Shown here: positions 2 to 59,236 of the stretch, piece by piece
How positions within the stretch are numbered: position 1 is the first letter of the stretch
Layout: each line of letters begins with the position of its first letter
Assembly (NCBI GenBank): GCA_002869385.1
Contig: PKTB01000007.1
Coordinates: forward strand, 80,729 to 144,728
Direction of reading: 5' to 3'
Source: Marinilabiliales bacterium
Lineage (GTDB): Bacteria; Bacteroidota; Bacteroidia; Bacteroidales; ML635J-15
DNA: 64,000 nt
The notes under the pieces: model-generated
Seen by the model: only the letters and a program-made list of their open reading frames with translations
Told to the model about the DNA's origin: nothing
Databases searched by the model: none
Position numbers and translations under genes: made by a program

Positions 2-652
2 AGCTGGTCAAATAGTATGAGTACAGACAGCATATTTAACTTGAGTAGTGGCACGTATTAGGTTACAGTATCGGAAGCAGGCGGTTGCTTTGCAACAGGG
101 ATATATACTATTACTGAGCCAGATTCATTATCTCTTTCAGAGACAATAACAGATGTGAGCTGTACTGGGAATAATGACGGACAGATATTAATAAATATTG
201 TTGGAGGGACGTTTCCTTATTCATTAGTTTGGAGTACAGATACTGCACAGACAGATACATTGTGTTCAAATCTTGTTGCAGGAGATTATACTCTTACTCT
301 TACTGACGGCTTGGGGTGTGTTAAATCCAAAACATATACAGTATTGGATGGTGTTATTGCCTGTGGTTAAAATGACTTACTAATACCAACAGTATTTACA
401 CCCAATAACGATGGAGTGAATGATAATTGGGAATTGCAAGGAATAGGTGGTTACACAGATGTGCAAATTGCTATATATAATCGCTCAGTGGAACTTGTTT
501 ATGAGTATTCGGGAAGTGGGATTGGTTATGATACTGATAGATGGGACGGCAAATTTAACGGAAAAAAATTGCCAATGAGTTCATACATTTTTGCTGTTGA
601 CCTGAAAGATAATACGGAAATTATTAAGGGGATTGTGTCGATAAAGTATTAA
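2..652 (+). CDS. 3' end of a large T9SS adhesin with SprB-type repeats and a type-B (CHU_C / gliding-motility) C-terminal sorting domain. The frame is interrupted by TAG 59-61 and TAA 368-370.
   Basis: Frame 2 is open from the window edge to TAA 650-652 except for the two stops. It shows SprB-repeat signatures (GTY*VTVSEAGGC, ITDVSCTGNNDGQI...LVAGDYTLTLTDGLGC). These are followed by the type-B CTD signature PTVFTPNNDGVNDNWEL...IYNRSVELVY...RWDGKFNGKKLPMSSYIF. The gene continues upstream of the window. Confidence 0.75.
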
Positions 653-840
653 GGTACCACGGTACCACACGATGAAATCGTGCGGTAGCTGGGAAATCGC
701 GCGGTAGCGGTGTCCTTCGGCCCTTCGACCCTTCGACTTCGCTCAGGGACCGAAAGCTCAGGGACCGAAAGCTCAGGAACCTAAAGACGCGCGGTAGCGA
801 GGACGTGGGCACCACACGATGAAATCGTGCGGTAGCATCA
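652..840. repeat. Composite GC-rich intergenic element. Two near-identical 29-bp hairpin units flank short tandem repeats.
   Basis: GGTACCACACGATGAAATCGTGCGGTAGC at 661-689 recurs at 808-836 with one change. Between them lie CCCTTCGA-type 8-mers and CTCAGGGACCGAAAG x3 (15-bp period). GC content is far above the flanking DNA. Confidence 0.9.
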
Positions 841-869
841 AGAGTTAAAAAAGTTTAAAAACGAAAAAT

Positions 870-1778
870 ATGAAAAAAATATTTACATGTCTTGTTTTGT
901 TGATTGTTGCACAGCAGTATGTTGTTTGCCAACAGACGCCATTATATAGTCAATATATGATGAATGAGTATTTAATAAATCCTGGCATAACCGGGAGTTT
1001 AAATGCAATTCCAATAAGACTGCAAGCTCGTCAACAATGGACTGGTGTGAAAGGAGCTCCTTCAACACAAATAATCAGTGCACATAGTTTGCTTAATCCT
1101 GAAATGGGTGTTGGCGGATATATTTTTAAAGATAAATTTGGGCCAATAAGTAGTACTGGTGTCCAAGCAACATATGCATATCATCTGAAAATCAATCAAA
1201 ATGTTAAACTTGGTCTTGGTGTTGGATTCGCTTTGTTTCAGTTTCAATTTGACGAGAGAGATCTTATTTCGATTGAGGAAAACGATAATGTTTTGACAGG
1301 TGGAGTGGAAAGCAGATTGGTTCCTGACGCAAATATTGGAGCTTATTTGTATTCTGAGAAATACTTTGCAGGGTTATCTATACTTCAAATACTTCAGAAC
1401 TCGATTGGTTTTGAAAATCAGACAGACGGGGCAATAACACTATCGCGTCAATATTATTTGTATGGTGGATATAAGTTTGAACTAAATGCCAATTTTTATC
1501 TCCAAGCTTCAATTCTGCTAAAAGTGGTAGCAGAATCTCCTTTTGAACCGGATATCAATTTAAAGGCTTTTTACAAAAAAAACTATTGGCTTGGATTAAG
1601 TTATCGTTCGGATGACTCATTTGTAACAATGTTGGGGATAAAATATCAGAAATATTATTTTGGTTATTCTGTTGGTTTTTCTTTCAGTACACTTAAGAAT
1701 TATACACATGGATGCCATGAAATTGTAATTGGAATCGACATTCCAAATAAAGTTCTAAAGAGTAAGAGTAGTTATTAG
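870..1778 (+). CDS. PorP/SprF-family type IX secretion system outer-membrane protein
   Basis: It has a signal peptide and then the QQTPLYSQYMMNEYLINPGITGS motif typical of PorP/SprF. The rest is beta-barrel-like alternating sequence. It lies directly downstream of a type-B CTD adhesin, which is the usual pairing. Confidence 0.8.
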   Translation: MKKIFTCLVLLIVAQQYVVCQQTPLYSQYMMNEYLINPGITGSLNAIPIRLQARQQWTGVKGAPSTQIISAHSLLNPEMGVGGYIFKDKFGPISSTGVQATYAYHLKINQNVKLGLGVGFALFQFQFDERDLISIEENDNVLTGGVESRLVPDANIGAYLYSEKYFAGLSILQILQNSIGFENQTDGAITLSRQYYLYGGYKFELNANFYLQASILLKVVAESPFEPDINLKAFYKKNYWLGLSYRSDDSFVTMLGIKYQKYYFGYSVGFSFSTLKNYTHGCHEIVIGIDIPNKVLKSKSSY

Positions 1779-4977: not shown

Positions 4978-7602
4978 TTATTTTTGAATAATCAGCTTTT
5001 TATTAATCACAAATTTATCACTGATGATATCAATAAAATACAAACCATTTGAATATTCAGAAGTTGATAACGGATATATAGTACCTGAGAATTCTGATAA
5101 ACTATAGCTATTTATTTCTTTCCCAATATTGTAAAATATTTTGATTGTATTTACTTTTTCAATACAATTATTGATGTCAATATTAACAATGTTATTTGCC
5201 GGGTTTGGAAAAAGTGAGATAGAATTTGAAATGTCTTCAATTTCATTAATTCCGACATTTCTGGTTACAGATATATCAAGTAGGTATGATCCAGTTTCTC
5301 CTGTAAAATATGGCGCTACATTAAAAATAACAGTGCCCCCGTTTATGACACTAATATTTGAAGTCATAATGTCATCAAAGTTATCAGACCACCCAGAATT
5401 ATTTTTATAAGAAAACATAACGTCTGCAGTATATGTCTGACCATTTCCACTGTTATAACTGTCGTGAATTCTTGCGTTGATTGAGTAATTATAGCCTGCA
5501 GGCAGGATAATCTTATAGTAGTCTAAATCTGAATTTATATGAATATTTGAACCTATTGTTGTTTTTGTAGCTGTTCCCCCTGAAAAAGATAATGGTAAAT
5601 TGTATGCAGAACCTTCATTATTATTATCTTCATAGATGTCGGGAGATAAAGAGGGGGAAACAACCGTAATATTAATGGGGTTGGAATAATATTGGCCGCC
5701 AACCAAATACCAATTTGAAGAACCATTTTGTAATTCTTCAATTGTTAAAATGTAAGTGCCAGGAGTTGCGATAACAGATGGTGTACTAACTGTTATAAAA
5801 GGGGAAGAATAAATATAACCTTCAGGCAAACCATTTGTTTCATTGATGGTTCCAATTGTTTGAACAAAGTTACCCTCCAAATCATATAAATTTGCCCTAT
5901 AAGAACCATAATATGTGGTGGTGCTGCCATTAATCAAATTAAAATTTACGGATGCTGATTGTCCTTGAACAAAAGTACTCGGATCAATAGCCGAATAAAG
6001 TTGAATATTGTTTGCAGGTGAATTAATGGTGACGTTTATTGGATTTGTATATGATGAGTTCCCAGCTAGAGTCCAATTTTCATTAGGATCCCGATAAAAT
6101 ATTCCCACCTTATAATTATCAGGTACCGTCAGAATGCCTGAATTTGAAAATGTTAACCCATTGGTATAATGGTAGCCCGGCTGTAAAGGGGAACTACCTG
6201 CAGATAGAATTTGAATATAATCGATAAAGTTGCCTGATGCTGTAAACAGGGCAGCACAATAATCACCACTAAAATTATTGGTGCCAGCATTTGTCACATC
6301 CACGTTTACAGTAAATGATTGAGCAAAGTTTACAGGGTTTGGAGAAATTGATATTGAGGAGAACAAGTTGATTGTTGATATAACGCTTCCGGGAACAGGT
6401 TGAATACCGATTAAAGCCTGCTGCCCTTCATTATATGTCCCAGCACCAGCACCAGTCCCGCCAGTACCCGGATTCAAAGCATCAAGGGTGAAAAATCCGT
6501 CACAATATCCTCCCCAGCCCCAATTCATGTGAAAATAATCATTATTATCATATCCATCACAGACAAAAGTATGGCCACCTTGACCAAAACCAGCATATTG
6601 AATTGGCCTTCTGGCATTTAAGTCTGTTTTTAAAATATTTATCCAGTTAGAGTCAGAATAATTATCCCGTTTTAATCCTTGTAGAGTCGTTGGATCATAG
6701 CCAAAATATGTTTTAAATGCATATTCAGAACATTGTTCAGGTGTTGGAGATCCTGAAATAATAACATAAGACCCACTTGAAGTTGGTCCATATCCCATTT
6801 CGACAGCAACTCCACAATGATACATTATTGTTGCAACAGCCGTGTTTGCACCATTAATATTGTTTGGCATTGAGCTCCAATCATATGTTGTAGCGGCAAA
6901 ATTTGCGGATAATGTCCCATATTGATCATGATTATATGAATGAAATCCTGTGCCAGTTGTCGGATAGTTCCAGAATTTCATAATTTGAGCCATGGCAGTT
7001 GCCGGACATCCGGCAACACAATGATATCAATTTGCAGAACCAGCATCAACGTCGTAAGGGCATAAGGCATTTACATAAGGTGATTGTGACCAAGTTGTCG
7101 TAAGCAGAGGATATACACTCATTGTTTCTTTGTCAGTATTAATAGGATACCCGCCCTCTAAGGATTTCCATTCATTTTCAATAAACAGATCGGCTTTATA
7201 GCCATTTATTAATACATCAGTTATTTCCTTTTTGTATTTTTCGATTAGTTTTATGAATGCGGGGGGCAAATTAGAGTCAAAATAACTGCCAGAAAGAGAA
7301 TAACCTAAAATGGGGGTAATATTATCATCTGCCGAAATAATCACAAAACCATCGCTTTGCTCAACATTAAAAATATATAGCAAAGCCGTTTCCTTAATTG
7401 TCTCTTTTTGATTTGCGATTTCATTCGACTTAGCAATATAAGCAAGCGAAAATGAAACTTCGGACAAACTTTTGTCTTTGGCTTTCTGTATGTAGAAATT
7501 TTTAGCAATTTTTAATGCCAATACCGGGTTTACCGGGTTAGTGAAAATATTTAATGTAAATGCACAACCCAATAATAAGAGCAATATTTTTTTTATAAAC
7601 AT
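4978..7602 (-). CDS. C10-family (streptopain/SpeB-like) cysteine peptidase with N-terminal prodomain, pre-peptidase C-terminal (PPC) domain and T9SS CTD. It is interrupted by an in-frame TGA at 7027-7029.
   Basis: This is one 875-codon frame. The sequence ...DAGSAN*YHCVAGCPATAMAQIMKFW carries the C10 catalytic-Cys motif just after the stop. The PPC-like part is DIYEDNNNEGSAYNL...DLDYYKI. The tail is LFPNPANNIVNIDI...GLYFIDII. Confidence 0.8.
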
Positions 7603-9512: not shown

Positions 9513-10736
9513 ATGGAAAAAAGAACAACACTAAATTTATTGTTTTATGTTAGAAAAACAAGATTGCTAAAAAATGGGGAAGCTCCTGTTTATATGCGAA
9601 TTACAGTTAACGGAGTTAGAAAAGATTTAGCACTAAATCAAGGGATTAATCCAAAATTGTGGGATTCTGTTAAAGGAAAAGCAAGTGGTAATTCAAAAAA
9701 CGCTCGTTCATTAAATTTGTATTTTGAAAGCATTAGAGTGCAGTTGCGTCAACACATGATAAATATGAGAGAGGAAAACATTCCAATTACTGCATTGACA
9801 TTAAAAAATAGATTTCAGGGAAAATCAACAAACGCAAAATACCTTATTGAAATGTTTAAAGAACATAATGAGAATATTCAAAAGCTTTCAGGAATTGATT
9901 TTGCACCCAATACAATAAGTAAATACAAAACAACACTGTTTTACACACAACTTTTTCTAAAATTGAAGTACAAATGTGATGATATAAATATAAAAGATGT
10001 AAATCATACATTTTTAACCAACTATGAATATTATCTCAAAACTGAAAGAAAATGTTCCCACAATACCGCAATGCGATATATCAAAGATCTTAGAAAGATT
10101 GTTAGAATTGCTCTTTCAAATGGATGGATTGGTAAAGACCCATTTGCAAATTATAAAATAAAATTTCATAAGGTTGACAGAGGTTTTCTAACTGAAGATG
10201 AATTACATGCTATTATAAATAAAACATTTACCATAAATCGATTAGAACAAGTTAAAGATTGTTTTTTATTTTCTTGTTTTACCGGATTGGCACATATAGA
10301 TTTAAAAAGATTAACACCTCAACATATTTTTAAAGATTCAAATAATAAATTATGGCTAAAAGTAAATCGTAAGAAAACAAACAGCTTATGCAGTGTTCCA
10401 TTATTACCAGTTGCTTTACAATTGATAGAGAAATATGAAAACAATCCATATTGTGTTGAAAATAATTTGTTATTACCTGTTCTTTCCAATCAATCGATGA
10501 ACGCATATCTAAAAGAGATTGCAGATATTTGCGGAATAACAAAAAGGCTTTCAAGCCACTTGGCAAGACACACATTTGCCACAACTATTACTCTTAATAA
10601 TGATGTCCCAATAGAAACTGTTAGCAAAATGCTTGGGCATTCTTCAATTAGTGTCACAAAAATATATGCCAGACTCCTAGACAAAAAAGTTGGTCGGGAT
10701 ATGCAACATCTTAATGATAAATTTACTTTATCTTAA
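9513..10736 (+). CDS. Tyrosine site-specific integrase of the Bacteroidota mobile-element type, with an N-terminal arm-binding domain
   Basis: The protein is 407 aa. The N-terminus LNLLFYVRKTRLLKNGEAPVYMRITVNG is typical of Bacteroidota integrases. Catalytic motifs are HLARHTFATT and LGHSSISVTKIYARL. Confidence 0.85.
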   Translation: MEKRTTLNLLFYVRKTRLLKNGEAPVYMRITVNGVRKDLALNQGINPKLWDSVKGKASGNSKNARSLNLYFESIRVQLRQHMINMREENIPITALTLKNRFQGKSTNAKYLIEMFKEHNENIQKLSGIDFAPNTISKYKTTLFYTQLFLKLKYKCDDINIKDVNHTFLTNYEYYLKTERKCSHNTAMRYIKDLRKIVRIALSNGWIGKDPFANYKIKFHKVDRGFLTEDELHAIINKTFTINRLEQVKDCFLFSCFTGLAHIDLKRLTPQHIFKDSNNKLWLKVNRKKTNSLCSVPLLPVALQLIEKYENNPYCVENNLLLPVLSNQSMNAYLKEIADICGITKRLSSHLARHTFATTITLNNDVPIETVSKMLGHSSISVTKIYARLLDKKVGRDMQHLNDKFTLS

Positions 10737-10765
10737 AACTTGCTAACTATCTATTCAATATTGTA

Positions 10766-10786
10766 GGGACTTTATGTCCCTTTTAT
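10766..10786 (+). terminator. Hairpin plus T-tract after the integrase gene
   Basis: GGGAC-TTTAT-GTCCC is followed by TTTTATT. The 10-mer ACTTTATGTC recurs at 11664-11673 in the first array spacer. Confidence 0.5.
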
Positions 10787-10994
10787 TATAAAACTTTTTG
10801 TTAAGTTTAGTAGAACAAGATGTGTGTAATCGTTAGAACTATGCAAAGTCTTCATTTTGAAGACTTCTTAAGAGTCATGGCTACAACCTTTGTGCAAATT
10901 ACTACCGTTTCAAATGGTTATATAATATGCTATTGTGGGTACTTTGAAACCAGAATTATTTATGTCTGTATTCCTTGGCTATTATATCAATATT

Positions 10995-11462
10995 TTACTG
11001 AAGTGCAATTCCCATTTTCATTTTTTCCTCATTAGAAAAACTTATTTCTTTTTCACATTTATAATATGCAACTAGATAGCTAATTGAAGGATGGTAATAT
11101 GTCTTATCAATAGTCTTGTCATTGTTTTTAGTTTCTGCATAAATCAATTTTCCATTATTAATGTAATAGTTAGTCGTTTCATTTTTATTTTCGTCCCTTA
11201 ACTGTACAATTTTAATTTCTTTTTCTTTTTTAAATACACATTGATTTATATTGCTAGTTTGAATTTTACTATTTATCAAGTTATCTGTTTCACATATTAT
11301 TTTGCGATAAGTATACCTTTCATTTTGTATTTCTAACACAATGTTATCTATCAAATCTATCAACTGTTCTTTACTTTGACTTTGCAATTCTGTATTTTGC
11401 CCAAATACACTTGTTATTGGTGATACAAATATTACAAATGCAAATAAAAATAGCTTTTTCAT
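10995..11462 (-). CDS. Hypothetical secreted protein (array block 1)
   Basis: It has a signal peptide (MKKLFLFAFVIFVSPITSVFGQ). No family was recognised. Confidence 0.45.
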   Translation of the reverse strand: MKKLFLFAFVIFVSPITSVFGQNTELQSQSKEQLIDLIDNIVLEIQNERYTYRKIICETDNLINSKIQTSNINQCVFKKEKEIKIVQLRDENKNETTNYYINNGKLIYAETKNNDKTIDKTYYHPSISYLVAYYKCEKEISFSNEEKMKMGIALQ

Positions 11463-11761
11463 AGTTTATATAGTTTGGTCTTAGTATAATTAACGCAATT
11501 TTAGTTATATTATTATCTAGGAACGTAGATGCAATATATCACTTGTAATAGAAATTCAAACTCACTAGATTCTAATCACATTTTTATTTAACGATGAACG
11601 AAAGTTAGACGACTAAACGTTACGATCTTTCTCAAATGGTAAATAGGTGTTGTTCCTACTGGACACTTTATGTCTCAGTAAAAAATGAACTATCATTGGA
11701 ATTTTTTTGCTGATAATTGAATTGAGTCTAAATTGTCAAACTTCAAACTAAATAAATATTG

Positions 11762-12229
11762 CTATAAAGACTTTGGCCTATATTTTTTCAAATATTCATC
11801 TAGCTTTAAGATTAACTTTAAATTAAGTCTCTTAAGTTTTTTTTCGTTTTTCTCATTCTGTATTTTTTTTGAAATCGTGTGTATCTTATAAATTTCATTA
11901 TAAATTTCAGGATAATTTGTTCCACCAATATCGTAAGTTGTGTATGAATATGTGGAAGCATCATAAATTGCCATTTCTTGTCCAACGTACTCTGCATTAG
12001 AATGGATAAACCATAAAATGTTTGAACATTCCTTCTCAAGTTCTGAAAGGTGCTCAACGTCCTCAATATCAATAGTCTTATAATTATTATAATTCTCTGA
12101 TAAGAAAACATAAAATTTATTTAAATCTGTTTTAGAAATGAGAGTATCTTGATTAAGTGATTTTGCGTCATTTTGAGCAAAAAGACACAATGTTGACATT
12201 GTAAATAGTAGTGTTATTACATGTTTCAT
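11762..12229 (-). CDS. Hypothetical secreted protein (array block 2)
   Basis: It has a signal peptide (MKHVITLLFTMSTLCLFAQ). No family was recognised. Confidence 0.45.
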   Translation of the reverse strand: MKHVITLLFTMSTLCLFAQNDAKSLNQDTLISKTDLNKFYVFLSENYNNYKTIDIEDVEHLSELEKECSNILWFIHSNAEYVGQEMAIYDASTYSYTTYDIGGTNYPEIYNEIYKIHTISKKIQNEKNEKKLKRLNLKLILKLDEYLKKYRPKSL

Positions 12230-12359
12230 AATATATGTTTTTAGTTTTTTTATCTCTAATAAGGGTCTTCAATTTTCTTTACGTATTTTATTATTTATTG
12301 TTGGGTAGTTTCAAAGAAATAACATTTGGAATTGCAAAGCTTTTCAGCCGGGCTGTTTT

Positions 12360-12923
12360 TTATTCTTCCTGTTCTCTACTATCGAATAAGCTAATTGCTT
12401 TCAAATATTTTTCACCACCAGTTTTGGTCATATCGTATATGAATCCTTCTAGATCTGGGTGCTCAACATTTATCCACTCGACAAGAGAATCCCTTTTATT
12501 AACCCACACATTCCAGTCAACATTAACACTTTCTAATATTTCGATTTCATAAATTCTATTCTCTTTATAGAAAACCTTTTGTTTAGTTATCATTGGATTG
12601 TTACCAAGGAATTCGAAACGTTTTGAATAAGTTGATATAGTTAACAAAACATTATTTTCACTTGAAGATATTTCTAATATTTTTATTTCTGGATTAAATA
12701 CGGAATCCCATTGATAGTATTGATGGAACTCTTCTAAGGAATATGTTTTTTTATAGTCGCCATCAACGATTGAAATGCTATCAGAAAGGTATGGTATAAT
12801 ATATTCATATTTCTTTTTTGCATAGTCATTAAAATAATTTTCTGTAATTCTTATATAATCGCTTTGTTTACATGATATGAAGAATATTATTAGAATTATT
12901 AATATTTTATGATTTTTAATCAT
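12360..12923 (-). CDS. Hypothetical lipoprotein (array block 3)
   Basis: It has a signal peptide with a lipobox (FFISC). No family was recognised. Confidence 0.45.
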   Translation of the reverse strand: MIKNHKILIILIIFFISCKQSDYIRITENYFNDYAKKKYEYIIPYLSDSISIVDGDYKKTYSLEEFHQYYQWDSVFNPEIKILEISSSENNVLLTISTYSKRFEFLGNNPMITKQKVFYKENRIYEIEILESVNVDWNVWVNKRDSLVEWINVEHPDLEGFIYDMTKTGGEKYLKAISLFDSREQEE

Positions 12924-13145
12924 ACTATATGTGTTAGTTAGGTATTTGAAATCTGTTTTAGCGTCTATTTTAAATTCTGACTAATGGTAAAGTTAAGTCG
13001 CTGTATTATAATATTTTATTGTTTTCATAAAATGATGTAATTATTAATGTTTTTTCGCCCTTTTTCGTAAGCAAAAGAATTTAATAAGATTCGGATAAAT
13101 AGATAAATTAATTCACATCTATTGGGGAGAATCTTATGCGTTGAA

Positions 13146-13330
13146 TTGCCCATTACGGTTCGCTCACCTTTGCGATGTTTTGGTAAAGATAAATGAAATT
13201 TATCTTTTATCCAAAATTACGTAAAGGCGCCTGCCGTACTCCGTCCCTCTGAGACTACATACAACAGGCGCCGTAAGGTGAGCGAACCGTTGCTCCGCAG
13301 AGCGTAGGGCTTGCGGAGCAACGGTTTTGC
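13146..13330. repeat. Structured repeat, family A copy 1: nested long inverted repeats
   Basis: There are 15-bp perfect arms, CGGTTCGCTCACCTT (13156-13170) and AAGGTGAGCGAACCG (13275-13289). A 13-bp perfect hairpin has arms at 13287-13299 and 13312-13324. The inner IR is GGCGCCTG/CAGGCGCC. The core is about 85-90% identical to 15331-15490. Confidence 0.85.
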
Positions 13331-13414
13331 AATATGGAAAGTTGGGAATTTTAGAACGCGTTTGTATCCACAGATAGCTAAGCTAATTTGGAAACAAAAG
13401 TTGACGTAACCTAC

Positions 13415-15289: not shown

Positions 15290-15330
15290 TATCAGCTAAA
15301 TTTTTGGTATATTGGTGTTGTCATAACCTT

Positions 15331-15490: not shown

Positions 15491-15612
15491 CGTTGCGCAT
15501 TACAAAGCACAAACCTATCAAGCCAAGAAGCCGTTGATTAATTGCTATGTCGTTTAGATTTAGCACTATCTGCGCAATGTTTTATGACAGCTTGTTGTGC
15601 CCAGTATTTCAC

Positions 15613-16332: not shown

Positions 16333-16392
16333 CGATCTGCAGAGCGTAGGGATTGTCTTGTCCTGAAATATGACTGCAGGTTAAACATATGA

Positions 16393-22643: not shown

Positions 22644-22649
22644 AATTTA

Positions 22650-48566: not shown

Positions 48567-49976
48567 TTAATTTATTTCTATTAATGGCTTTAGTGGTAAA
48601 TTTTTCTGAGGGATTCTTTTTATTGATGAGTCATATTCGGAAGGCAAAAATGAGAACTTGTGCCCAACACAATTTGAATTGTATTGTTTCTTTTCTGGGA
48701 AAGCAAATCTCAACAGGTTAATTACTTCCATTGATATTGCATTCAGAAAGTCGCTTTCTTCTGTTTCAAATTTATCATCTACTATATCAAGTAAGTAATG
48801 AAAACTTATATCATCTTCATGTTTTTCAATGCAAATAATATTATACTTTTCAGATAATTTGTGAAGGAAGATATTTTCAACTAAATCTACATAACTATAA
48901 GATTGATTGTTATATTTTTTAATACCATATAAAGTGTGAGAAATAGAATCTAATGAATGGAGGCTTAAATCCTTTTCAAACTCAAATTTGCTCAAGTTTA
49001 ATTCAATTGAATTATATCCAAAATAATCTAACCAAAAGAGAAATAGGCCAAAGGAATTCCATTCGACATTTCCTATTGGGATAATTTCAATAGTATTTAT
49101 TCTAGAAAGCCAATCTTTACAATATGAAAAAATCTCTACCTTATCTGAGAACTTTTTATTTATTGACTTAGCATATTGTTTTTGCTCATCTGTGAATATG
49201 TCTACATTTTGCATCATGCTTCCACCATCAATATTATTGGCAAAATCAAAATTTACAACAGTTATCCAACTTTTACCATAATCTGAATAGACTTCATTGA
49301 GGATACCGATATTCTTTTCTGTATAGTCAAAAATCCCCTTCCATAACAGCCCTCTAAATATTTGAAGATACATTTGCCATGTCTGTGGTTTAAAAAACTT
49401 CAATCTTTCAATTAATTTGTCAGGCAAAAGCCCGCCATAAAAGAAAGCATTTCGCAAAAAATTAAGTACTGTATTATCATTTATAAATGATAACGCATCT
49501 AAAACGAAGTCGGACTCTTTATTAATTTCATTATCAAAGAGTAAATATTTTATTATTTTTGATCGCACAGGATGAAGGCCAATGATATGAGAATTATCTC
49601 CTGAAATTTTAATCAAATATTCCTTTTGCAATAAGCTAATTAGAAAAACAATATCATTTTTCAATTGTAAAAACTGATTAAGTTCTTTTAGTTTTACTTT
49701 TGAACCATAGCTGTCTGCAAGTACGGTATAGCGCAACAATCTTATTTTTTCTTTCCCAACATCTGATGAATCAATCAATATCTTTTTAATTTGATAACTT
49801 AACTTTGCAGTTATACTTTCATTTTGTGTAATTAAATAAACGAACTCCATTAAAGGACCTTTACCTCCGAAGTTATCCCATGCATTTTGAAAATTGACAA
49901 ATTTTAAATCTTTATTATAATAATCTAACGATTTATAAATAGACTCTGCCTCTCCTTGTTCAAAACTTAGTTCCAA
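48567..49976 (-). CDS. STAND-like giant frame, segment 2 of 4 (helical region following the NTPase)
   Basis: It starts directly after TAA 49977-49979 (...KFNFS*LELSFEQGE...) and continues in the same frame. Confidence 0.5.
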   Translation of the reverse strand: MELSFEQGEAESIYKSLDYYNKDLKFVNFQNAWDNFGGKGPLMEFVYLITQNESITAKLSYQIKKILIDSSDVGKEKIRLLRYTVLADSYGSKVKLKELNQFLQLKNDIVFLISLLQKEYLIKISGDNSHIIGLHPVRSKIIKYLLFDNEINKESDFVLDALSFINDNTVLNFLRNAFFYGGLLPDKLIERLKFFKPQTWQMYLQIFRGLLWKGIFDYTEKNIGILNEVYSDYGKSWITVVNFDFANNIDGGSMMQNVDIFTDEQKQYAKSINKKFSDKVEIFSYCKDWLSRINTIEIIPIGNVEWNSFGLFLFWLDYFGYNSIELNLSKFEFEKDLSLHSLDSISHTLYGIKKYNNQSYSYVDLVENIFLHKLSEKYNIICIEKHEDDISFHYLLDIVDDKFETEESDFLNAISMEVINLLRFAFPEKKQYNSNCVGHKFSFLPSEYDSSIKRIPQKNLPLKPLIEIN

Positions 49977-51131
49977 TTACGAAAAATTAAATTTATCTCC
50001 GACTTCTATTGAATTCCAATCTTCTTCTCTTATTGTAACTAAAAAGTTAAAATTCTTTTTTGATGATAATTCCATTAGAATATTTATCCATTCTTTATTC
50101 CCAGGCTCCACATCAATATAGATAGTTATTGGAAATCTAATTCCTTTTGAAATTCCTTCGAGTGAATTTATTACATTATAAATTGTTGTTATGTTTTCTG
50201 GTAAATGTTTTAATTCATAAACAGTTGTTTCTGAGCAATTTTCTTTTAAAAATCTATATGCCAAAGTACTTTTACCTTGCCCAGAAGCACCATGAATAAA
50301 AACTATATTAGAACTGTTAAATTTCTTTCTTATTAAATTCAATTTATCAATTCTGACAACATCAACATCTGCTAATATATGTTTGTAGGTAGCTGAAATA
50401 CCTTTATAAAAATCTTGTTTTAAAAGATCAATATTTTCTTCCTGTATGTTATTGTCTAACAATTGAATAAGATAATTAAATGTTTTGCTGAAGCTAATTC
50501 TTTCCCTTTGATATTTACATATTTTTTCGAATTGCCCCTTAAAGTCTTTGGGTAATATTTGTATTTGTCTTTCTGCTGAATAATAAATCCAATAAATAAG
50601 AAGATCAAAGGTCATTTCAAAATCTACTAAGCACCCCCATTTATCAAGGCTTAAAAGGATTTCTTTTTTTATTTCTTGTTCGCTAACAATTTCATATTTA
50701 AAATGTCCTTTTATGACTTCTATTTCTTTTTTATTAAGTCCTTGCTTTTTTAATTTGTCAATGAGCCCTGCAGAATAATTCGAATTTGTAAGGTTTTTAA
50801 CATCATCATTAATTTCTCCAAATGATACTAACTTAATAATTGGGTTATATCCTTCATTGTATGCTTCTATTGCCCTTCTAAGAAAGGTGTTCTCTTTTCT
50901 TGTAGTTACAACATCCGATAAAGTAATTACTTTTCCTAGATGCTTAACTTGAATTATTTCTTCAACATCATTGTTGTGGTTATATATATCTATATCTTCA
51001 AATCTACCTTCTGGATGAAACTTATATTCAGACTCATTGTAAGTAAGTATTCGATATAGTGTATACAGAAATTGTACTCTATATCCTTTCAAAGCACTGA
51101 TTGCACCAAGATTATTTGATAGATTAGTCAT
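49977..51131 (-). CDS. STAND-like giant frame, segment 1 of 4: DUF4297/Cap4-type nuclease domain plus P-loop NTPase
   Basis: The N-terminal region is ALKGYRVQFLYTLYRIL...HPEGRFEDIDIYNHNNDVEEIIQVKH, a PD-(D/E)xK-like E-D...Q-x-K pattern seen in DUF4297. The Walker A motif is FIHGASGQGKSTLAYRFL. Confidence 0.7.
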   Translation of the reverse strand: MTNLSNNLGAISALKGYRVQFLYTLYRILTYNESEYKFHPEGRFEDIDIYNHNNDVEEIIQVKHLGKVITLSDVVTTRKENTFLRRAIEAYNEGYNPIIKLVSFGEINDDVKNLTNSNYSAGLIDKLKKQGLNKKEIEVIKGHFKYEIVSEQEIKKEILLSLDKWGCLVDFEMTFDLLIYWIYYSAERQIQILPKDFKGQFEKICKYQRERISFSKTFNYLIQLLDNNIQEENIDLLKQDFYKGISATYKHILADVDVVRIDKLNLIRKKFNSSNIVFIHGASGQGKSTLAYRFLKENCSETTVYELKHLPENITTIYNVINSLEGISKGIRFPITIYIDVEPGNKEWINILMELSSKKNFNFLVTIREEDWNSIEVGDKFNFS

Positions 51132-51303: not shown

Positions 51304-51486
51304 CTATTTAATTCTTTTTACCTGTATTAAAAGCTGTATCCTCAGCCTCTTTTTGCCAGGGTTCATGGCAAGTAATTCATCACGTATTAGGGCATTCATG
51401 TGTAAACCTTAAGTGTTAGTCTCACAATAATCGGCTTGTTTCTGAAGAGTATATTTTGACAATATATGTATAAAATAATAACACAT
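51304..51486 (-). pseudogene. Second DUF4248-like HTH gene with an in-frame TAA at 51409-51411
   Basis: The translation is MCYYFIHILSKYTLQKQADYCETNT*GLHMNALIRDELLAMNPGKKRLRIQLLIQVKRIK. It aligns along its length with the 43666-43848 product. It is too short for the ORF track. Confidence 0.45.
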
Positions 51487-51812: not shown

Positions 51813-52083
51813 AAAATAAAAGAAAATACATCATATATTGAATTCATTAAAATCAAATTCCAAAAACCTTCAACAAAAGCACATAAAATATTATATAAAT
51901 ATTCATGTCAGAATTCTTGTATTTATTTGCTCTATTTTGTACATTTGTAATGTAATTGCAAAGTGATGCAATTAGGTTCATTTATATCATGTAAAGTATT
52001 GTACATCGCAAGTTGCCAATTCGGTGGCATTGTAAATTTAGAGTTCTATAAGTATTGCAGTAGAGGAGCTTTAAAATTATTTT

Positions 52084-52238
52084 CGACTACGCTCAGGGAC
52101 CGGCTCAGGGACCGGCTCAGGGACCGGCTCAGGGATTGGCTCAGAGACCAGCTCAGTGTGGTAGGGCAAGTAGAGGTACCACACGATAGAATTCCCGATA
52201 AAACGGGATAGACTGTGCGGTAGCGGCGGTAGCGGTGA
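52084..52238. repeat. GC-rich element: 12-bp tandem repeat plus a hairpin unit
   Basis: CGACTACGCTCAGGGACC is followed by GGCTCAGGGACC x3 and degenerate copies. After that comes GGTACCACACGATAG...CTGTGCGGTAGCGGCGGTAGCGG. Confidence 0.85.
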
Positions 52239-52461
52239 TAGAGATAAACAAAATAGTTTATAGAAATAGAGTATATGTTATTTGAAAAAGAGGCTAGTAT
52301 ATTTATCTTTTTTACAAAATGTTTTGTAATGAATCTTGCCAGATGATATAGAATGGCAAGTATTATCATTAGGATTATTTTAATTATAAAGCTCTTATCC
52401 ATAGTGTTTAAGTTTTTATTTGTTTCGAAAATATCATCTATTGTGAAGCAAAGTTTTTGAA

Positions 52462-54705
52462 TTATTCAATCATTATTTTACTTCTGTAAGTTTTGTCTTT
52501 GCTTTTTAATTCAATAAAATAGATACCTGAATTCAAATTTTTCTTCAATAAAAGAATTTCATTATTATTGATTTTATCTATCTTTCTAACAACCGAACCT
52601 TTTAAATCAGCCAGAATAAATGTGAATTGAGAATTATCAGGATTGTATAATTGTATTGTTGCACTTTCTGAGAAAGGATTAGGATAAATAGTCAATTCGT
52701 TGTCTGTATCACTATTAATAACAACTGAAGAGTTATTAAAGAAAGCGCAATTATCAATGATATTACTAAATGACATGTTTCCGTTAAAGTTTTCAGGATT
52801 GTTGGTGTAAACTCCAATCATGTAATAATAAACTGAATCTACATTGAAATCATTATAAGTATTGATGAAACCCCAAACAGAATCATGTAGAATCATGTTA
52901 GACTGAGAAGTTCCTCTATATATGTAGTATTGTTGTGGAGAGAAGGTATCACTTTCATCAACGTACTCATCCCATGCTAAACCCATTATTGAATTAAAAG
53001 CATCAAGTGAAAGGTGTATGGTTTTGTGATAATAGCTTGTTTCCGATTCGTTACCACAAGTGTCAATCACTGTTATTTTGTATTTGGAGCTTTGTTGATC
53101 TGGGTGTGAAAAGATATCAATAAATTCTCCGAGAGAATAAAAAGAAACGTTACCTACCTGTTCATAATCGTAAGGTACTGTTTCCTTGTAAATGATATAT
53201 AGCATAGTCCCTGCATCGTTTGTTTTTTGCCAGTAAATTTTGTTTTTCATGATGGATGTGTCAACAGTAACAAGGCAGACCTGCTCATTTTGATACGGCT
53301 GCTGTACAAATATATTTATCTGATCGGAGGCAGTACATCCTAACTGGTCTGTTACCGTTACAGAATAATTTGTCGTAATCGAAGGAGTGGCAGTAGTTGT
53401 ACTTATATTTGTGTCGGAAAGGCCTGAAGAAGGAGACCATAAGTAACCGAAAGCCCCGGACTCTACAGGATAATTACTTGTACAGTAAGCCATAAGTTTG
53501 GCAGACTCCCCTGGACAGAGGTTATCTGCCGTGCAGGCATCAGCATCAAGCTGTATAACTTTTAATTTGGCAGTATCGCTGGTAACTGAACGGCATAGGT
53601 TTGTTACTTCGCAAGTGAAATTTCCCTGATCTGTTAAGTTCAAATTGTTTATCGCATAGATGCTATCTGTAGCCCCCGGGATATCAATACCGTTTTTTTG
53701 CCACTGGTAAATTATGGGGGATGTGCCTTCGGCTGTTACTGAAAATGTAACATTACTGTTTAAGCATGTATTTTGTGCATCGGGGGGTGTGGTAATGCTT
53801 ACTGCTAATGGATTTTGTAATACAGATGAATATAAATATATTTTCATACTTAATTCATCAGATGTAAACGAACGAATACAATGCACACAACGATTTGTAT
53901 TTTTTTGTTAACCAGAAATTAAACACATATTTGCTTCTGCTGATGAATGTAGACAACATATAGCGCTTAGCTCACTACCACTTGATGAGCTTGTCCAATA
54001 ATAACCAGCCCCTATATTAAGTATTGAATTTAAAGAACAGACGTATGTCATTTGATACATAGCAGGTAAAAACCAATCATTATAATCGTTAAGTGAAAGT
54101 TCATCGCAAATACTGGCTGCAATAGGACGATCTGCACAATTCGCAATAATTAATCCGGTGTTTTCTTCTCCATCATAAAAATCATCTGTGCCTGAAATAT
54201 TGATTCCATTACAACCCCATTGAATTCCTGTACTTTGACTGGCGAGAGGAGATATTAGACCATTACCTACGCTATCAATAAAATAGACAATCCCACCTTG
54301 AAACAAATCACCAATAATAAGGTTTGCGGTAGTTGTTATTATTTTTACCTTAATTAAACTACTATACCAATAAGCGTTTTCACAGATAGTGGCATTTGAA
54401 ATTTCTGCCCTGTAAAACCATTTGCCTGTCGGGCTAAGCGTGGTTAAAAATTCATAAGGTGTTTAGGTCGCACTTTCGATGTTTATCCAATTAATACTGT
54501 CGGAGCTTTGCTGCCACTGTATTGTGCCATTTTGTCCACTTACATTTAAAACTATAGTGTCGCCAGCAAAACTTGCATACCATCCTGTTTGGGCAATTGT
54601 ATTTAGGCTAATAATAAGTACAAAAATAAGAAATAGAAAGTTTTTTAATGGAATCACATGATGCACTACGTACGGGAGTGAGTGTAATTGGTTGAAGTGT
54701 TTCAT
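52462..54705 (-). CDS. T9SS-sorted surface protein with a DUF1566-like lectin-type region, an Ig-like domain and a CTD. It is the tandem paralog of 54722-57043 and has in-frame TAA codons at 54463-54465 and 53908-53910.
   Basis: This is one 748-codon frame. The paralog reads through both equivalent positions. The Ig-like part is VTFSVTAEGTSPIIYQWQKNGIDIPGATDSIYAINNLNLTDQGNFTCEV. The CTD is LTIYPNPFSESATIQL...GIYFIELK. Confidence 0.7.
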
Positions 54706-54721
54706 AGTAAATGTTTAAATG

Positions 54722-57043
54722 TTATTTTATCATTATTTTTCCTGTGTAAACAAGGTCATCGCTGATCAATTTTAACAGATATATTCCGTGGTTAATTTGC
54801 TGTTTTTCAATTTGTATCTCATTTCCAGTAACATTAAATGTTTTTCTTATGATAGTCCCTTTTATATCACTTAAAGTTAGTATAAAGCTTTTGTTTTCAG
54901 GGTTGTAGAACTTTACGGTAGTAGTTTCATTAAAAGGATTAGGGTAAATAAATAATTTATGCTCTGTATTATTTTCAGATACATTAGAGGAATTATTAAT
55001 AAAACAACTGTTGTTAACGATGTTACTAAAAGACATATTACCGTTAAAATTATCAGGATTGTTTTTGCGGATACCAATCATGTAAAAATAAACAGAATCT
55101 ACATTATAATCATTAAAAGTGTTGATGAAACCCCAAACAGAATCATGCAGAACCATAGTTTCCGGTGATGCCCCTCTGTAGATGTAATATTTTGTAGGGG
55201 AGTAAACACCTGTCTGGTCAATGTACTCTTCCCAGCCTAGACACATAATGTCATCAAATGCATCCATGTTCAATTTTATAGTTTTATGGAAATCGGACAA
55301 TCCTGATTCATTACCACAAGAGTCCACTACTGTAATTTTATATTTATCACTATGTAAATTGGGGTGGGAAATAAGATCTGTGAATTCACCCGGATGTGAG
55401 GGACTGACATTGCCTGCTTGTATGTATATGTCAGGCTCTGCTTCCTTATAAATTATATATAGCATTGTACCAACATCATTTGTTTTTTTCCAATAAATTT
55501 TGTTTTTCATAATGGAAGTATCAACAGTTACGAGGCATACCTGCTCATTTTGATAAGGCTGTTGTACGAAAACGTTTACCTGATCTGATGATGTGCAGCC
55601 TAATTGGTCGGTTACCGTTACCGTGTAATTTGTTGTTACCGAAGGATTTGCAATAGTGTTAGCCTGAATTGTGGTTGAAAGACTTGTTGGGGGAGACCAT
55701 AAATAGCTAAAACTTCCTGATTCGACAGTGTAATTGCTTATGCAGCTAGCATTTAGTTTAGCAGTTTGACCTGGGCATAAGTTATCTACAGAACCTATGT
55801 TTGCATCGAGCTGAATAACTTTTAATTTAGCAGTATCGCTGGTGACAGAACGGCAAAGGTTGGTTACTTCGCAGGTGAAATTTCCCTGGTCTGTTAAGTT
55901 CAGGTTGTCTATTGTATAGATGCTATCTGTAGCCCCCGGGATATCAATACCGTTTTTTTGCCACTGGTAAATTACGGGGGATGTGCCTTCGGTTGTTACT
56001 GAAAATGTAACATCATTTCCCGAACATTTATTTTGAGTATTTGACTGTATAATTATATTTACTGAAATAGGATTATTTACAACAGTTGAGTACAAATATG
56101 TTTTAGCACTAAAATCATATGGAGTAAATGACCTCATACAGCGAACTCTTGAATTGGAATATCTTGGTGTGTTAGCAATCAAGGTCTGATAATATATGTT
56201 ACTTGTCGCAACAATCGCACGTTGGGGGTTATTGCAGGATGCGCTATTAGTGGAAGAAGTCCAGTAAAGTTTTGACATATCAGTATATCCTCCTTCATAA
56301 TCTGTTGAATGTATTTCTGTAAGATGGGAAGTGGGGTCGTTAAGTATAGGTATGTATTGAGCGATTGACGGTAAATACCAGTCGCTATATCCATTTAAGA
56401 TAAGATCATCACAAATACTTGCTGCAATTGGTCTTGTGTTGCAATTTGTTAATATTGTTGAAGTATTAACAGCCCCGTCAGTATCAGTTACATAAAACAC
56501 GAGATTGTCGCAGCCCCATTCCATGCTATCGCTTTGATCGTTTAATGGGATTACTTCTCCATAACCAGTACTGTCGGATATTGTTGTTAGACCACCATGA
56601 AACCAATCGCCTACAGACACTTGTGTTGTGTTTGTAATTATTTTTTGTTTCAAAACGCTACCATACCAGGAAGAATTTTCACAAAGAGCAGTATTTGTAA
56701 TTTCAGCCCTGTAGAACCATTTACCTGTAGGACTATCAGGGGTTAAAAACTCGTAAGTTGTAGCTGTCGCGTCATCAATATTAATCCAATTAATACTGTC
56801 GGAACTTTGTTGCCATTGGATCGTTCCATTTTGTCCACTTACATTTAAGACTATTGTGTCGCCAGCAAAACTTGCATACCATCCTGTTTGGGCAATTGTA
56901 TTTAGGCTAATAATCAGTACAAAAATAAGAAGTAGAAAGTTTTTTAATGGAACCACACAATTAAATCGTGCGGTAGCATTGAGGAGTTCGTAGTTCGAAT
57001 CTGCTGATGCAGAAAATTTTGATATTTTAGTCATATTTTTCAT
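54722..57043 (-). CDS. T9SS-sorted surface protein with a DUF1566-like region, an Ig-like domain and a CTD
   Basis: The DUF1566-like part is MEWGCDN...SICDDLILNGYSDWYLPSIAQ...LYWTSS...RVRCMRSF. It also has an Ig-like domain, and the CTD is LFIYPNPFNETTTVKF...GIYLLKLI. The start is uncertain: an in-frame GTG at 56956-56958 directly precedes the signal peptide. Confidence 0.7.
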   Translation of the reverse strand: MKNMTKISKFSASADSNYELLNATARFNCVVPLKNFLLLIFVLIISLNTIAQTGWYASFAGDTIVLNVSGQNGTIQWQQSSDSINWINIDDATATTYEFLTPDSPTGKWFYRAEITNTALCENSSWYGSVLKQKIITNTTQVSVGDWFHGGLTTISDSTGYGEVIPLNDQSDSMEWGCDNLVFYVTDTDGAVNTSTILTNCNTRPIAASICDDLILNGYSDWYLPSIAQYIPILNDPTSHLTEIHSTDYEGGYTDMSKLYWTSSTNSASCNNPQRAIVATSNIYYQTLIANTPRYSNSRVRCMRSFTPYDFSAKTYLYSTVVNNPISVNIIIQSNTQNKCSGNDVTFSVTTEGTSPVIYQWQKNGIDIPGATDSIYTIDNLNLTDQGNFTCEVTNLCRSVTSDTAKLKVIQLDANIGSVDNLCPGQTAKLNASCISNYTVESGSFSYLWSPPTSLSTTIQANTIANPSVTTNYTVTVTDQLGCTSSDQVNVFVQQPYQNEQVCLVTVDTSIMKNKIYWKKTNDVGTMLYIIYKEAEPDIYIQAGNVSPSHPGEFTDLISHPNLHSDKYKITVVDSCGNESGLSDFHKTIKLNMDAFDDIMCLGWEEYIDQTGVYSPTKYYIYRGASPETMVLHDSVWGFINTFNDYNVDSVYFYMIGIRKNNPDNFNGNMSFSNIVNNSCFINNSSNVSENNTEHKLFIYPNPFNETTTVKFYNPENKSFILTLSDIKGTIIRKTFNVTGNEIQIEKQQINHGIYLLKLISDDLVYTGKIMIK

Positions 57044-57048
57044 TACAG

Positions 57049-58317
57049 TTAATAGGTTTTAATTATTTTTTTTATTGAAATAGGATTGTTATCCTTGATA
57101 ATACTTAGAAAATAAACTGAAGGGTTGTAAAACTTCATGTCTATCAAAGTTTCATTGTTCTTTATAAAGCCACTGTCAATAATTTTTAAATTGGCATCAG
57201 TTAATATGTATTTATAGTAAACATTGCTTTTGTTGTTGTCTATTTTTATTATTAAATAATTAGTAACAGGATTAGGGAAAACTGAGATATTGTTGTTATC
57301 AAAAGTTGAAAGTTGTAATGGGATAGAATTATCAGACACCGTCCATTTGCCAAATAATGTGGTATTTACAGCAATGTTTCTAGGATTAGAGGCAGAAACA
57401 TCCTGAATTTCACCGATTTCGCTCCATGTTTCATAAGGGGCTGTACTTGTCCAGGCAATGGCATTTGTTACATCAATTTCATTATCAAGACCGGCAAACC
57501 ATGAAAATTGTATCTCGCGTCCGCTTAAAGGTTCATTGTTGCTTGTTATTGTCCAATTTGAAGCAATAGAAGAGTTTTCTACGGTAATAATGCTTTCGGG
57601 GCCGGTAATACGGGTAATTTCGATATTACCTATATCATCTGACCCATTACTGATATTACATCCAAGAAAGGCGAGAGCATTCGTTCCCAAGTAACGGCTG
57701 CTCATTACAGTTTCCCCGAGAATATAAGCAGAGGATATTTCTGTAGGGTCGGATGCCCCGGTATTAAAATACAGCGTGTTAAGAATTTGAGGAGAAGCCG
57801 AATTAAAAGTATTAACATTGCCATTAGATAATGCAAACGAATTGTTAATATAAACATCCGATGATAAATAAACGCCAAAAGGATTATTTAGTTCTGCATC
57901 GTAAAACAAAAGCGGGTCAGTATTACTCTCAAGGCTTTGCGGCGTATTACGGCTGAAAATGATTTTTGAATTGTTATTAGATGTAAAATCTGAAGTATTA
58001 AGCAAATCGCCTTTTGTAATTATTGTGCCGTGGTTGTTTATAGCACCATTATTATTAATAAAATCAGAGCTTACTAGTTGTGCGTTTTGTAATATGTCAA
58101 ACGTGGTAGATGGGCTAATGCTTAGTTGAGCTTGTACGGAAAAGTTAAGTAAAGCGAAAAGAAGTAATAGGATTAAACTGTGTGCCCACGCAAGTAACTC
58201 GCGCGGGAGAGCTGAGCTGACAATGGTACCACACGATACAATCGTGCGGTAGCGATAATGGTACCACACGATACAATCGTGCGGTAGCGATGATGGAATA
58301 TTAAAAAGTTTTTTCAT
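57049..58317 (-). CDS. T9SS-sorted surface protein, paralog of 7754-9169. GC-rich repeat elements are embedded in-frame in its signal-peptide region.
   Basis: It shares blocks with 7754-9169. The CTD is ISVFPNPVTNYLIIKI...SVYFLSII. The N-terminus reads MKKLFNI-[40 repeat-encoded codons]-LILLLLFALLNFSVQAQ. Confidence 0.6.
   Translation of the reverse strand: MKKLFNIPSSLPHDCIVWYHYRYRTIVSCGTIVSSALPRELLAWAHSLILLLLFALLNFSVQAQLSISPSTTFDILQNAQLVSSDFINNNGAINNHGTIITKGDLLNTSDFTSNNNSKIIFSRNTPQSLESNTDPLLFYDAELNNPFGVYLSSDVYINNSFALSNGNVNTFNSASPQILNTLYFNTGASDPTEISSAYILGETVMSSRYLGTNALAFLGCNISNGSDDIGNIEITRITGPESIITVENSSIASNWTITSNNEPLSGREIQFSWFAGLDNEIDVTNAIAWTSTAPYETWSEIGEIQDVSASNPRNIAVNTTLFGKWTVSDNSIPLQLSTFDNNNISVFPNPVTNYLIIKIDNNKSNVYYKYILTDANLKIIDSGFIKNNETLIDMKFYNPSVYFLSIIKDNNPISIKKIIKTY
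58177..58296. repeat. GC-rich hairpin elements lying inside the 5' end of ORF 57049-58317
   Basis: The hairpin CCCACGCAAG-TAA-CTCGCGCGGG lies at 58185-58207. Two tandem 35-bp copies of AATGGTACCACACGATACAATCGTGCGGTAGCGAT span 58222-58291. Confidence 0.85.
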
Positions 58318-59236
58318 AAGATTTTTTTTGTATTATTTGAGTCCACCAAAGTTGACTGTATTTTTGACTGATAATTGTGCGCAGATTGTTCTCAATTATA
58401 ATTAAACTGAGGTTTTTTGCTTCATCAATAAACCAAGTGTTGAAATCCACTTTTTTTATAGTGTATTTTTCGAAAATAAGATTGGTATTGTTTTTTTTTA
58501 TTAGTTTTAGTAGAATAAATGCGTTTTCGATTTCGATAACTGAAGTTACTTGGCCAGGTTTAATGCTGTTAAGGCTCAATCTGATTTGTGACTCTGGATT
58601 GGTGCAGTTGTAAGATTGTTTTTGATTGTATATTTTTGAGAAATCCTGTTTTAGCGTGTCGGTTGTGAATGAAAACTTTTCTTTTGGGAGAGGCTTTCCA
58701 TTGGAGAGTGCCTTGAATAAATCTTCGGCATTAAGTATGCTTTTGATGTGAAATTAGGGAGTGTACCAATAGTAGTTTCTTAGTTTTTGATTAATAATTT
58801 TAGGGGTAATGAATAAACGATAAAATGAAGCTGTGTCAGCACCAAAGATAGATTTAATTTTTTTTAAAATCTCAGGAGCGATTGTTGTAGAATCATAGTG
58901 ATTGATAAAACTAATAACTTCTGCATTAGTTGGGAGAATCCCATATTTTTGAGCGATTAGCTCTTCAAAAGTATCATTAACTAACATAATGAATGCCAAG
59001 GGAGCATCAACCTCAACATTACCGTATACTTTTTCAATATTTATTTTATATTGCACATCCTGAAACGAGATGTTAATATTATCTATCTGTGCAAGTATCT
59101 TTTGGTTAGGATTTAAAACGATATCTGTTTTTTCTGCAGTACCGATTTCGAACTTTTGGAACAAAAAATACAGTAAAAAAATTAAAACGCATCCTAGAGC
59201 CATTAAAAGAAATACTATTTTAGTTAGCTTATCCAT
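58301..59236 (-). CDS. Membrane-anchored protein with a weak parvulin/SurA-like PPIase resemblance. It has an in-frame TAA at 58754-58756.
   Basis: This is one 312-codon frame with an N-terminal TM segment. The sequence ...NYYWYTP*FHIKSILNAEDLF...LNSIKPGQVTSVIEIENAFILLKLI resembles the parvulin C-terminal strand pattern. The assignment is weak. Confidence 0.35.

Follow-up and report, generated by a model that had tools for sequence, protein, structure and literature searches.

Assembly-private G:C>T:A changes, very probably from oxidised guanine, underlie 19 of 21 in-frame stop codons in a Marinilabiliales metagenome contig

In-frame stop codons split genes across the window

A stretch of 64,000 nucleotides from contig PKTB01000007.1 of assembly GCA_002869385.1 (positions 80,729 to 144,728), hereafter the window, raises the question of why 21 in-frame stop codons should interrupt its genes when frameshifts are almost lacking, and whether these stops belong to the organism or to the deposited sequence. 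The contig (280,100 bp) is part of a GenBank metagenome-assembled genome (MAG) named 'Marinilabiliales bacterium', and the window, with a G+C content of 31.7%, carries locus tags C0596_06355-06645. By exact look-up the gene fragments of the window were found to be GenBank proteins PLX08475-PLX08531, and an exhaustive protein search returned a protein of 263 amino acids (aa) that is 100% identical to the 263-aa N-terminal fragment of a radical-SAM/SPASM gene. The window is a faithful copy of the public record.

An earlier reading made from the letters of the window (the sequence-only reading) had listed the 21 stops, and inspection of the sequence confirmed every one of these triplets in position and strand. 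A mechanical scan showed that at each listed gene single stops part long open segments of the same frame, as in the chain 39009-41447, 38418-39008, 33897-38417 and 31590-33896 of one toxin frame, where only single stops stand between consecutive segments. The accompanying claims, that neighbouring open reading frames (ORFs) are one frame with domains continuing over the stop, and that frameshifts are almost lacking and indels confined to a single metallo-beta-lactamase (MBL)-fold gene, were both borne out. In Pfam comparisons the Peptidase_C10 domain (residues 171-371) runs over stop X192, the Radical_SAM domain (residues 111-271) runs over stop X264 and the Lactamase_B_3 domain continues over stop X116. 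Homologues of the SpvB/TcdB/RHS toxin are single ORFs of approximately 3200 aa, the size of the merged frame, those of an nSTAND-like NTPase are single ORFs of 1386-1390 aa with identity of up to 71%, and those of a protein with DUF8202 and a type IX secretion system (T9SS) tail are single ORFs of 534-548 aa. When the toxin, NTPase, C10 peptidase and DUF8202 genes were aligned with their homologues, each stop took up one column and no gap was needed. Two frameshifts in the MBL-fold gene were the only indel-type lesions found. The further claim that the stops split otherwise intact genes holds generally and fails for TAA 51409, which lies in a short and already degenerate helix-turn-helix (HTH) paralogue. 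The split-gene pattern is far beyond chance.

Independent assemblies carry sense codons at 19 of the 21 stops

The window was compared with DNA from other public data. Contig NODE_51 of ENA assembly ERZ794999 (155,984 bp, coverage 62.9; ENA 63x) aligned over the whole window, whilst ENA assembly ERZ794998 (coverage 6.2; ENA 6x) and a Logan contig of SRR5894289 each covered part of it, and JGI 3300007102 contig Ga0102541_1052169 (278,204 bp) was compared at the equivalent of window positions 18393-42699. The two ENA assemblies and the JGI assembly are independent assemblies of the same strain as the window. The alignment of all 64,000 bases with ENA 63x was ungapped throughout, with zero indels, and contained 112 substitutions private to the window, consisting of 58 C>A, 53 G>T and one C>G change and including no transitions. 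The C>G change, at position 57951 (G in the window, C in ENA), is the sole private difference outside the G>T/C>A class. Wherever they overlap the window, ENA 6x, JGI and Logan side with ENA 63x against it. Among these private changes are 19 of the 21 listed stops, each of which is a sense codon in the other assemblies that cover it; the original codons and their replacements are GAA>TAA (nine stops), TCA>TAA (four), GGA>TGA (four) and TCG>TAG (two). Restoration of the 112 bases left no interruption in any gene of the list, apart from the MBL-fold gene and the second HTH gene, which fall outside it.

All 19 private stops are, very probably, artefactual. Those on the forward strand comprise TAG 59-61 and TAA 368-370 in a SprB/CHU_C adhesin gene, which read TCG (Ser) and GAA (Glu) elsewhere and result from C>A at 60 and G>T at 368, respectively; TAA 2438-2440, which interrupts the signal peptide of an outer-membrane protein of 280 aa and reads TCA (Ser) elsewhere (C>A at 2439); and TAA 27080-27082 in an ArdC-like gene, which is GAA (Glu) in three assemblies and for which ENA has an intact 312-aa gene. 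The others are on the reverse strand. TGA 7027-7029 in the C10 peptidase gene is GGA (Gly) elsewhere, and the 90% cluster of the window fragment holds the intact 874-aa protein from JGI, ENA and Logan. At TGA 17188-17190, in an M43 metallopeptidase gene, ENA reads GGA (Gly) within an intact 481-aa gene. Of the two stops in the radical-SAM/SPASM gene, TAG 21281-21283 is TCG (Ser) in three assemblies and TGA 21617-21619 is GGA (Gly) elsewhere, with the intact 460-aa protein found in the 90% cluster of the fragment from JGI, ENA, Logan and NCBI. TGA 31458-31460, in a gene that lies downstream of the toxin and encodes a membrane protein of 124 aa, is GGA (Gly) in three assemblies. The toxin gene itself carries TAA at 33897-33899, 38418-38420 and 39009-39011, each GAA (Glu) elsewhere, and the intact 3279-aa protein in its 90% cluster comes from both ENA assemblies, whilst TAA 42613-42615 in the DUF8202/T9SS-tail gene is TCA (Ser) in three assemblies. 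For the NTPase gene, ENA reads GAA (Glu), TCA (Ser) and GAA (Glu) at TAA 47511-47513, 48567-48569 and 49977-49979, respectively, and the intact 1386-aa protein in the corresponding cluster comes from ENA and Logan. In the gene of an Ig/T9SS surface protein, TAA 53908-53910 and TAA 54463-54465 are GAA (Glu) and TCA (Ser) in ENA, where the gene is intact at 747 aa. Finally, TAA 58754-58756 is GAA (Glu) in ENA and lies in the gene of a 311-aa membrane-anchored protein, previously called 'PPIase-like', for which there was no Pfam match.

At the protein level, comparison of the window with ENA and Logan gave 31 differences in 7382 codons, including nine stops, and each of these arises from a single G>T or C>A change in the window, no other class being needed. 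The JGI assembly lacks nearly all of the window's changes and carries a separate private set of 15, all of which are G>T or C>A and 14 of which were seen on inspection to have a purine 3' of the affected G (NGR context). Four of these are nonsense changes at sites other than those of the window, at 27486 in the ArdC-like gene and at 36197, 37199 and 38714 in the toxin gene, and they account for the fragmentation of both genes at different places in JGI. The JGI assembly breaks the toxin and the NTPase elsewhere than the window does. The public IMG proteins of the JGI contig are likewise fragmented, at other sites. At 19591 and 29755, G>T changes are common to the window and JGI and absent from the ENA assemblies; these represent either errors that both took from common reads or true variants.

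The private changes share one class and context and show no selective filter

The residues expected at the stops were also obtained from homologues, the ortholog alignment having been proposed by the sequence-only reading as a means of inferring the ancestral codon. In an alignment of close homologues of the NTPase the residues at the three stops are Glu in 18 of 18, Ser in 18 of 18 and Glu in 17 of 18 sequences, whilst the C10 stop falls on an invariant Gly in close homologues and the DUF8202 stop on an invariant Ser. With Glu, Ser or Gly at these positions the only one-step paths to the stops are GAA>TAA, TCA>TAA and GGA>TGA, all of which are G:C>T:A changes. If G:C>T:A were the only change, codon usage in the window would predict TAA, TGA and TAG in the proportions 67:20:13%, and the numbers observed in the merged genes are 13:4:2.

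The private changes affect 0.175% of bases, or 0.55% of G:C sites, and fall on both strands equally. They are evenly scattered with a mean spacing of 578 bases, and no clustering of G>T relative to C>A was detected, even within 150 bases (runs test z = -1.2). The base 3' of the affected G is a purine for 106 of the 111 G>T/C>A changes. Per 1000 sites, CGG has the highest rate (23), followed by GGG (14.5) and TGA (14), whilst NGT and NGC stand at approximately 0-3.6. This NGR context is the known oxidation susceptibility of the 5' G in GG and GA.

Classified by effect, the changes comprise 55 missense, 19 synonymous, 18 nonsense and 18 intergenic, a count that omits the 19th private stop (change at 21282) as lying outside the stretch compared. 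The context-weighted neutral expectation is 59.5 missense, 12.5 synonymous, 21.7 nonsense and 16.3 intergenic. The effect classes thus match neutral expectation, which indicates that no selective filter has acted on the changes. The yield of stops is also as predicted. Of all possible coding G:C>T:A changes in the window genes 13.6% make a stop, and with the observed context bias stops would make up around a quarter of coding changes and one-fifth of all G:C>T:A changes when intergenic sites are included. This high yield arises because the contexts hit most often, in which A or G follows the G, coincide with the first bases of GAA, GAG and GGA and with the complement of TCA and TCG. With approximately 92 private changes in coding sequence, 19 stops are as expected, and frameshifts are lacking because the process substitutes bases only.

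Several other routes to the ancestral residues and to the error class were tried and dropped. Scans with a toxin fragment against GTDB representatives and metagenome contigs, intended to recover ancestral codons from close relatives, returned only relatives of approximately 40% identity. Alignments to PDB entries for the C10 and radical-SAM proteins confirmed domain continuity, with homologues too distant to give ancestral residues; the Ser/Thr suggested in this way at 21617 was misleading, the true residue being Gly. The tandem paralogue at 54722-57043 was considered as an ancestor for the stops in the surface-protein gene at 52462-54714, and the regions proved too diverged. A query built by concatenating ten gene segments returned almost only C10 peptidases and was informative for one stop. 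No motif common to the surroundings of the stops, such as might point to a methylation-type systematic error, was apparent on inspection. A transition-only (deamination) spectrum was ruled out by the invariant Glu, Ser and Gly of the homologues and then by direct comparison of the assemblies.

Oxidised guanine as the probable source of the changes

The sequence-only reading had offered substitution-type sequence error among its explanations and had held that sense codons in an independent assembly would mark the stops as an artefact. Sense codons were found in independent assemblies at 19 of the 21 stops, and substitution-type error is thereby backed. These 19 stops very probably belong to a layer of oxidised-guanine (8-oxoguanine, 8-oxoG) errors that is private to this assembly and is not part of the genome of the organism. 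The changes are assembly-private, purely G:C>T:A, set in NGR context and free of any selective filter, and a second assembly carries like errors of its own. In the proposed course of events, guanine in the sequenced DNA would have been oxidised to 8-oxoG, which would pair with A on copying and so be read as T, and the miscopies would then have entered the consensus, altering approximately 0.55% of G:C positions. The genome is AT-rich (32% G+C) and rich in GAA, GGA and TCA codons, with which the oxidation-prone contexts would coincide, and the outcome would be the nonsense-only pattern of approximately one stop per 3 kb. That the lesion is 8-oxoG, that it was formed in the sample or in vitro and not inherited, and that it reached the majority call by such a route is the most likely account.

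There is precedent for such an artefact in C>A/G>T library changes attributed to 8-oxoG, which are commonest at CCG>CAG (CGG on the G strand) and worse with low DNA input and oxidising contaminants (Costello et al. 2013, Nucleic Acids Res 41:e67, PMC3616734). Some points weigh against this account. The published artefacts occur in reads at low allelic fraction (PMC3616734), whereas the changes described here are in the consensus, and the two are somewhat at odds. The weak step is accordingly the entry into the consensus, which needs low template complexity or coverage, a heavily oxidised library or a non-majority assembly step. The random interspersion of G>T and C>A gives no positive evidence on read orientation. 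In addition, the window and JGI share the changes at 19591 and 29755 and a variant at 41434-41438 (described below), a tree-like arrangement that a real diverging lineage would also give.

Alternative explanations

The same lesion could have acted in the living cell. mutM/mutY mutators show near-exclusive G:C>T:A changes from unrepaired 8-oxoG, and the changes may be real if they belong to a sub-lineage with a defective 8-oxoG repair system (MutM/MutY, 'GO') or strong oxidant exposure, nonsense changes having knocked out dispensable genes. We consider this unlikely, although the pure G:C>T:A spectrum and NGR context are also expected from unrepaired 8-oxoG in vivo and the tree-like differences would suit it, the ENA sequence looking ancestral, the window and JGI sharing two G>T changes and the 41434-41438 variant, and private changes following. 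A closely related possibility, to which we give rather little credence, is that the G>T changes arose in vivo in a Marinilabiliales bystander of perchlorate-reducing enrichments that had lost GO repair or been hypermutated through reactive oxygen or chlorine species, a sub-population with G:C>T:A changes in the thousands being abundant enough to assemble; if true, this would be a natural case of genome erosion driven by oxidants, rich in nonsense changes and free of indels. Perchlorate-reducing cultures contain reactive chlorine species, and the MAG probably comes from perchlorate-reducing enrichments, judged by its accession neighbourhood. In a table in PMC6797604, 'Marinilabiliales bacterium' proteins of the same accession block (PLX02242, PLX09622 and others) are assigned to Barnum et al. 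2018, a study that, according to this source, dealt with perchlorate-reducing enrichments from marine sediment. If the enrichment origin is right, one might speculate that oxidising chlorine species in cultures or extracts could promote guanine oxidation. Several findings speak against a mutator lineage; the mutM and mutY genes themselves lie outside the window. Purifying selection is not seen, with nonsense changes at 18 against 21.7 expected and an intergenic hit rate equal to that in coding sequence, and at least 14 of approximately 45 genes are truncated, which extrapolates to about a third genome-wide and would be hard for a viable, abundant population to bear. JGI is likely to derive from the same data or population, because the 41434-41438 variant is common to both and the contigs measure 278,204 and 280,100 bp, yet 110 of the 112 changes are missing from it and different ones are present. 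ENA 63x and ENA 6x are identical at all such sites that both cover, and there are zero transitions and zero indels among the 112 changes. A real mutational burst, another of the options offered in the sequence-only reading, is unlikely.

Decoding of the stops, by reassignment, suppressor tRNAs or efficient readthrough, with nonsense changes tolerated and frameshifts purged, would explain why the genes are otherwise intact and without frameshifts, and is given next to no probability here. Simple reassignment had rightly been rejected in the sequence-only reading. TAA would stand for Glu at nine sites and Ser at four, TGA for Gly and TAG for Ser, and all three stop types also terminate genes normally. 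Suppression or readthrough, which the same reading had kept as an option, falls with the finding that otherwise identical independent assemblies of the same strain carry sense codons at 19 of the 21 sites, so that the stops do not belong to the organism itself; moreover, synonymous, missense and intergenic sites changed in the same way and at the same rate. No tRNA and no Rfam element was found within the 64-kb window. Ordinary pseudogenisation under relaxed selection is favoured by the lesions of the MBL gene (TGA 18612 and two frameshifts) and the second HTH gene (TAA 51409), which are common to other assemblies, and the earlier reading argued soundly that decay of the ordinary kind would bring frameshifts in similar numbers, which fits the MBL gene. 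Three further assemblies of this strain, however, lack the other 19 stops, and the frameshifts, transitions and deletions that decay produces are not represented among the 112 private changes, making this a very unlikely explanation overall. For the 19 private stops both recoding or suppression and ordinary pseudogenisation are refuted. As the lesion chemistry is known only through its footprint, another technical source could be considered, such as abasic sites with A-rule insertion, Illumina G/T cross-talk or an assembly or polishing bug, and here the likelihood appears slight indeed. Depurination would add A>T changes, of which there are none among 112, channel cross-talk would be bidirectional and produce T>G and A>C changes, none of which were seen, and the NGR preference with its maximum at CGG fits both the oxidation potential of guanine and the published artefact (PMC3616734).

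Genuine pseudogenes and other features of the window

Outside the error layer, two of the listed stops are genuine old lesions, being shared with other assemblies. TGA 18612-18614 is the same in ENA 63x and JGI and lies in the MBL-fold (Lactamase_B_3) gene at 18400-19100 on the reverse strand, a genuine pseudogene that is identical in these two assemblies and in which two frameshifts have placed the signal peptide and the C-terminal 'IKPRIVIPVHYE' segment in other frames. TAA 51409-51411, also on the reverse strand, is the same in ENA 63x and lies in the degenerate HTH paralogue at 51304-51486 (reverse strand), upstream of the NTPase gene; its HTH motif is already diverged from that of the 60-aa parent gene at 43666-43848 (reverse strand). 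Two further candidates for lesions were set aside. An extra frameshift between a CarboxypepD_reg ORF (14981-15289) and a TonB_C ORF (14431-15003) was not upheld, the arrangement being identical in other assemblies and the two being called there as separate genes, and a caspase-TIR split at 23983 is likewise identical in other assemblies, with the genes again called separately. In the former pair (14431-15289, reverse strand) the CarboxypepD_reg-like ORF of 102 aa overlaps the TonB_C ORF of 190 aa by 23 nucleotides (nt) in another frame, and the ENA gene calls are of 92 and 190 aa.

The toxin is part of a conserved three-part module at 31206-43086 on the reverse strand, consisting of the DUF8202 and Por_Secre_tail protein, the SpvB/TcdB/RHS toxin of approximately 3200-3280 aa and small variable downstream genes. 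Synteny of the module, with the DUF8202 gene upstream of the toxin, is kept in relatives at only approximately 40% identity (loci L001-L003, L005 and L006), whilst the C-terminal toxin tips and the downstream genes vary, with Toxin-JAB1 in L005 and L006 and the 124-aa membrane protein here. Between the DUF8202 stop and the toxin ATG is a 13-nt spacer in which positions 41431-41441 read TTTTCACGTTT in the window and JGI and TTTCCTCTTTT in both ENA assemblies. The variant at 41434-41438 comprises three changes in 5 nt, none of the G>T type. It probably reflects true variation between samples or strains, and it changes a purine-rich AGAGGA-like run that lies immediately 5' of the toxin start.

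Positions 9513-29200 likely represent an integrated island starting at a tyrosine recombinase (9513-10736). Its cargo includes two radical-SAM/SPASM genes, TonB_C, the M43 peptidase, DUF4760 and ArdC, and a TIR - caspase(C14) - TIR trio is present at 23593-25474. Further along, 45336-51131 holds the nSTAND-like NTPase (1386 aa) together with an AAA_15/DUF3696 ATPase, and a small HTH gene lies close to each of the two. A short tandem repeat at 52046-52402, which separates the NTPase region from the gene of the surface protein, gives rise to LSRS/DRLR-type repeats in overlapping ORFs on both strands.

Significance and comparison with known systems

An oxidised-guanine error layer in the deposited sequence would leave the genes of the organism intact, with no recoding, suppression or unusual decay, and makes the stops a matter of data quality and not of biology. 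The deposited MAG carries approximately 0.17% G>T/C>A errors, by which around a third of the genes in the 64-kb stretch are truncated, and proteins in public databases are fragments, the toxin being represented by pieces of 806, 164, 1505 and 761 aa and the radical-SAM protein by pieces of 263, 97 and 59 aa. Nonsense-only, frameshift-free stops at Glu (GAA), Gly (GGA) and Ser (TCA/TCG) codons form a simple diagnostic of oxidised-guanine error in AT-rich assemblies, and any such pattern calls for a check before a claim of pseudogenes or recoding is made.

Reassignment and suppression, as in code 4/25 bacteria and recoded phages, likewise place in-frame stops within conserved domains and leave the reading frames otherwise intact. 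Reassignment, however, gives one stop type one meaning and is heritable, whereas the three stop types of the window correspond between them to Glu, Ser and Gly and are gone in other assemblies. The near-exclusive G:C>T:A changes, with frequent GAA>TAA and GGA>TGA, resemble those of GO-system (mutM/mutY) mutators, but a GO mutator lineage should show selection against nonsense changes and reproducible mutations, and the window shows neither. As in the OxoG artefact, the changes are C>A/G>T only, have CGG as their strongest context (PMC3616734), are not reproduced in independent data and fall on coding and non-coding sites alike. They differ from that artefact, described at low allelic fraction in deep human exomes, in being fixed in the consensus of a bacterial MAG at 0.55% of G:C positions.

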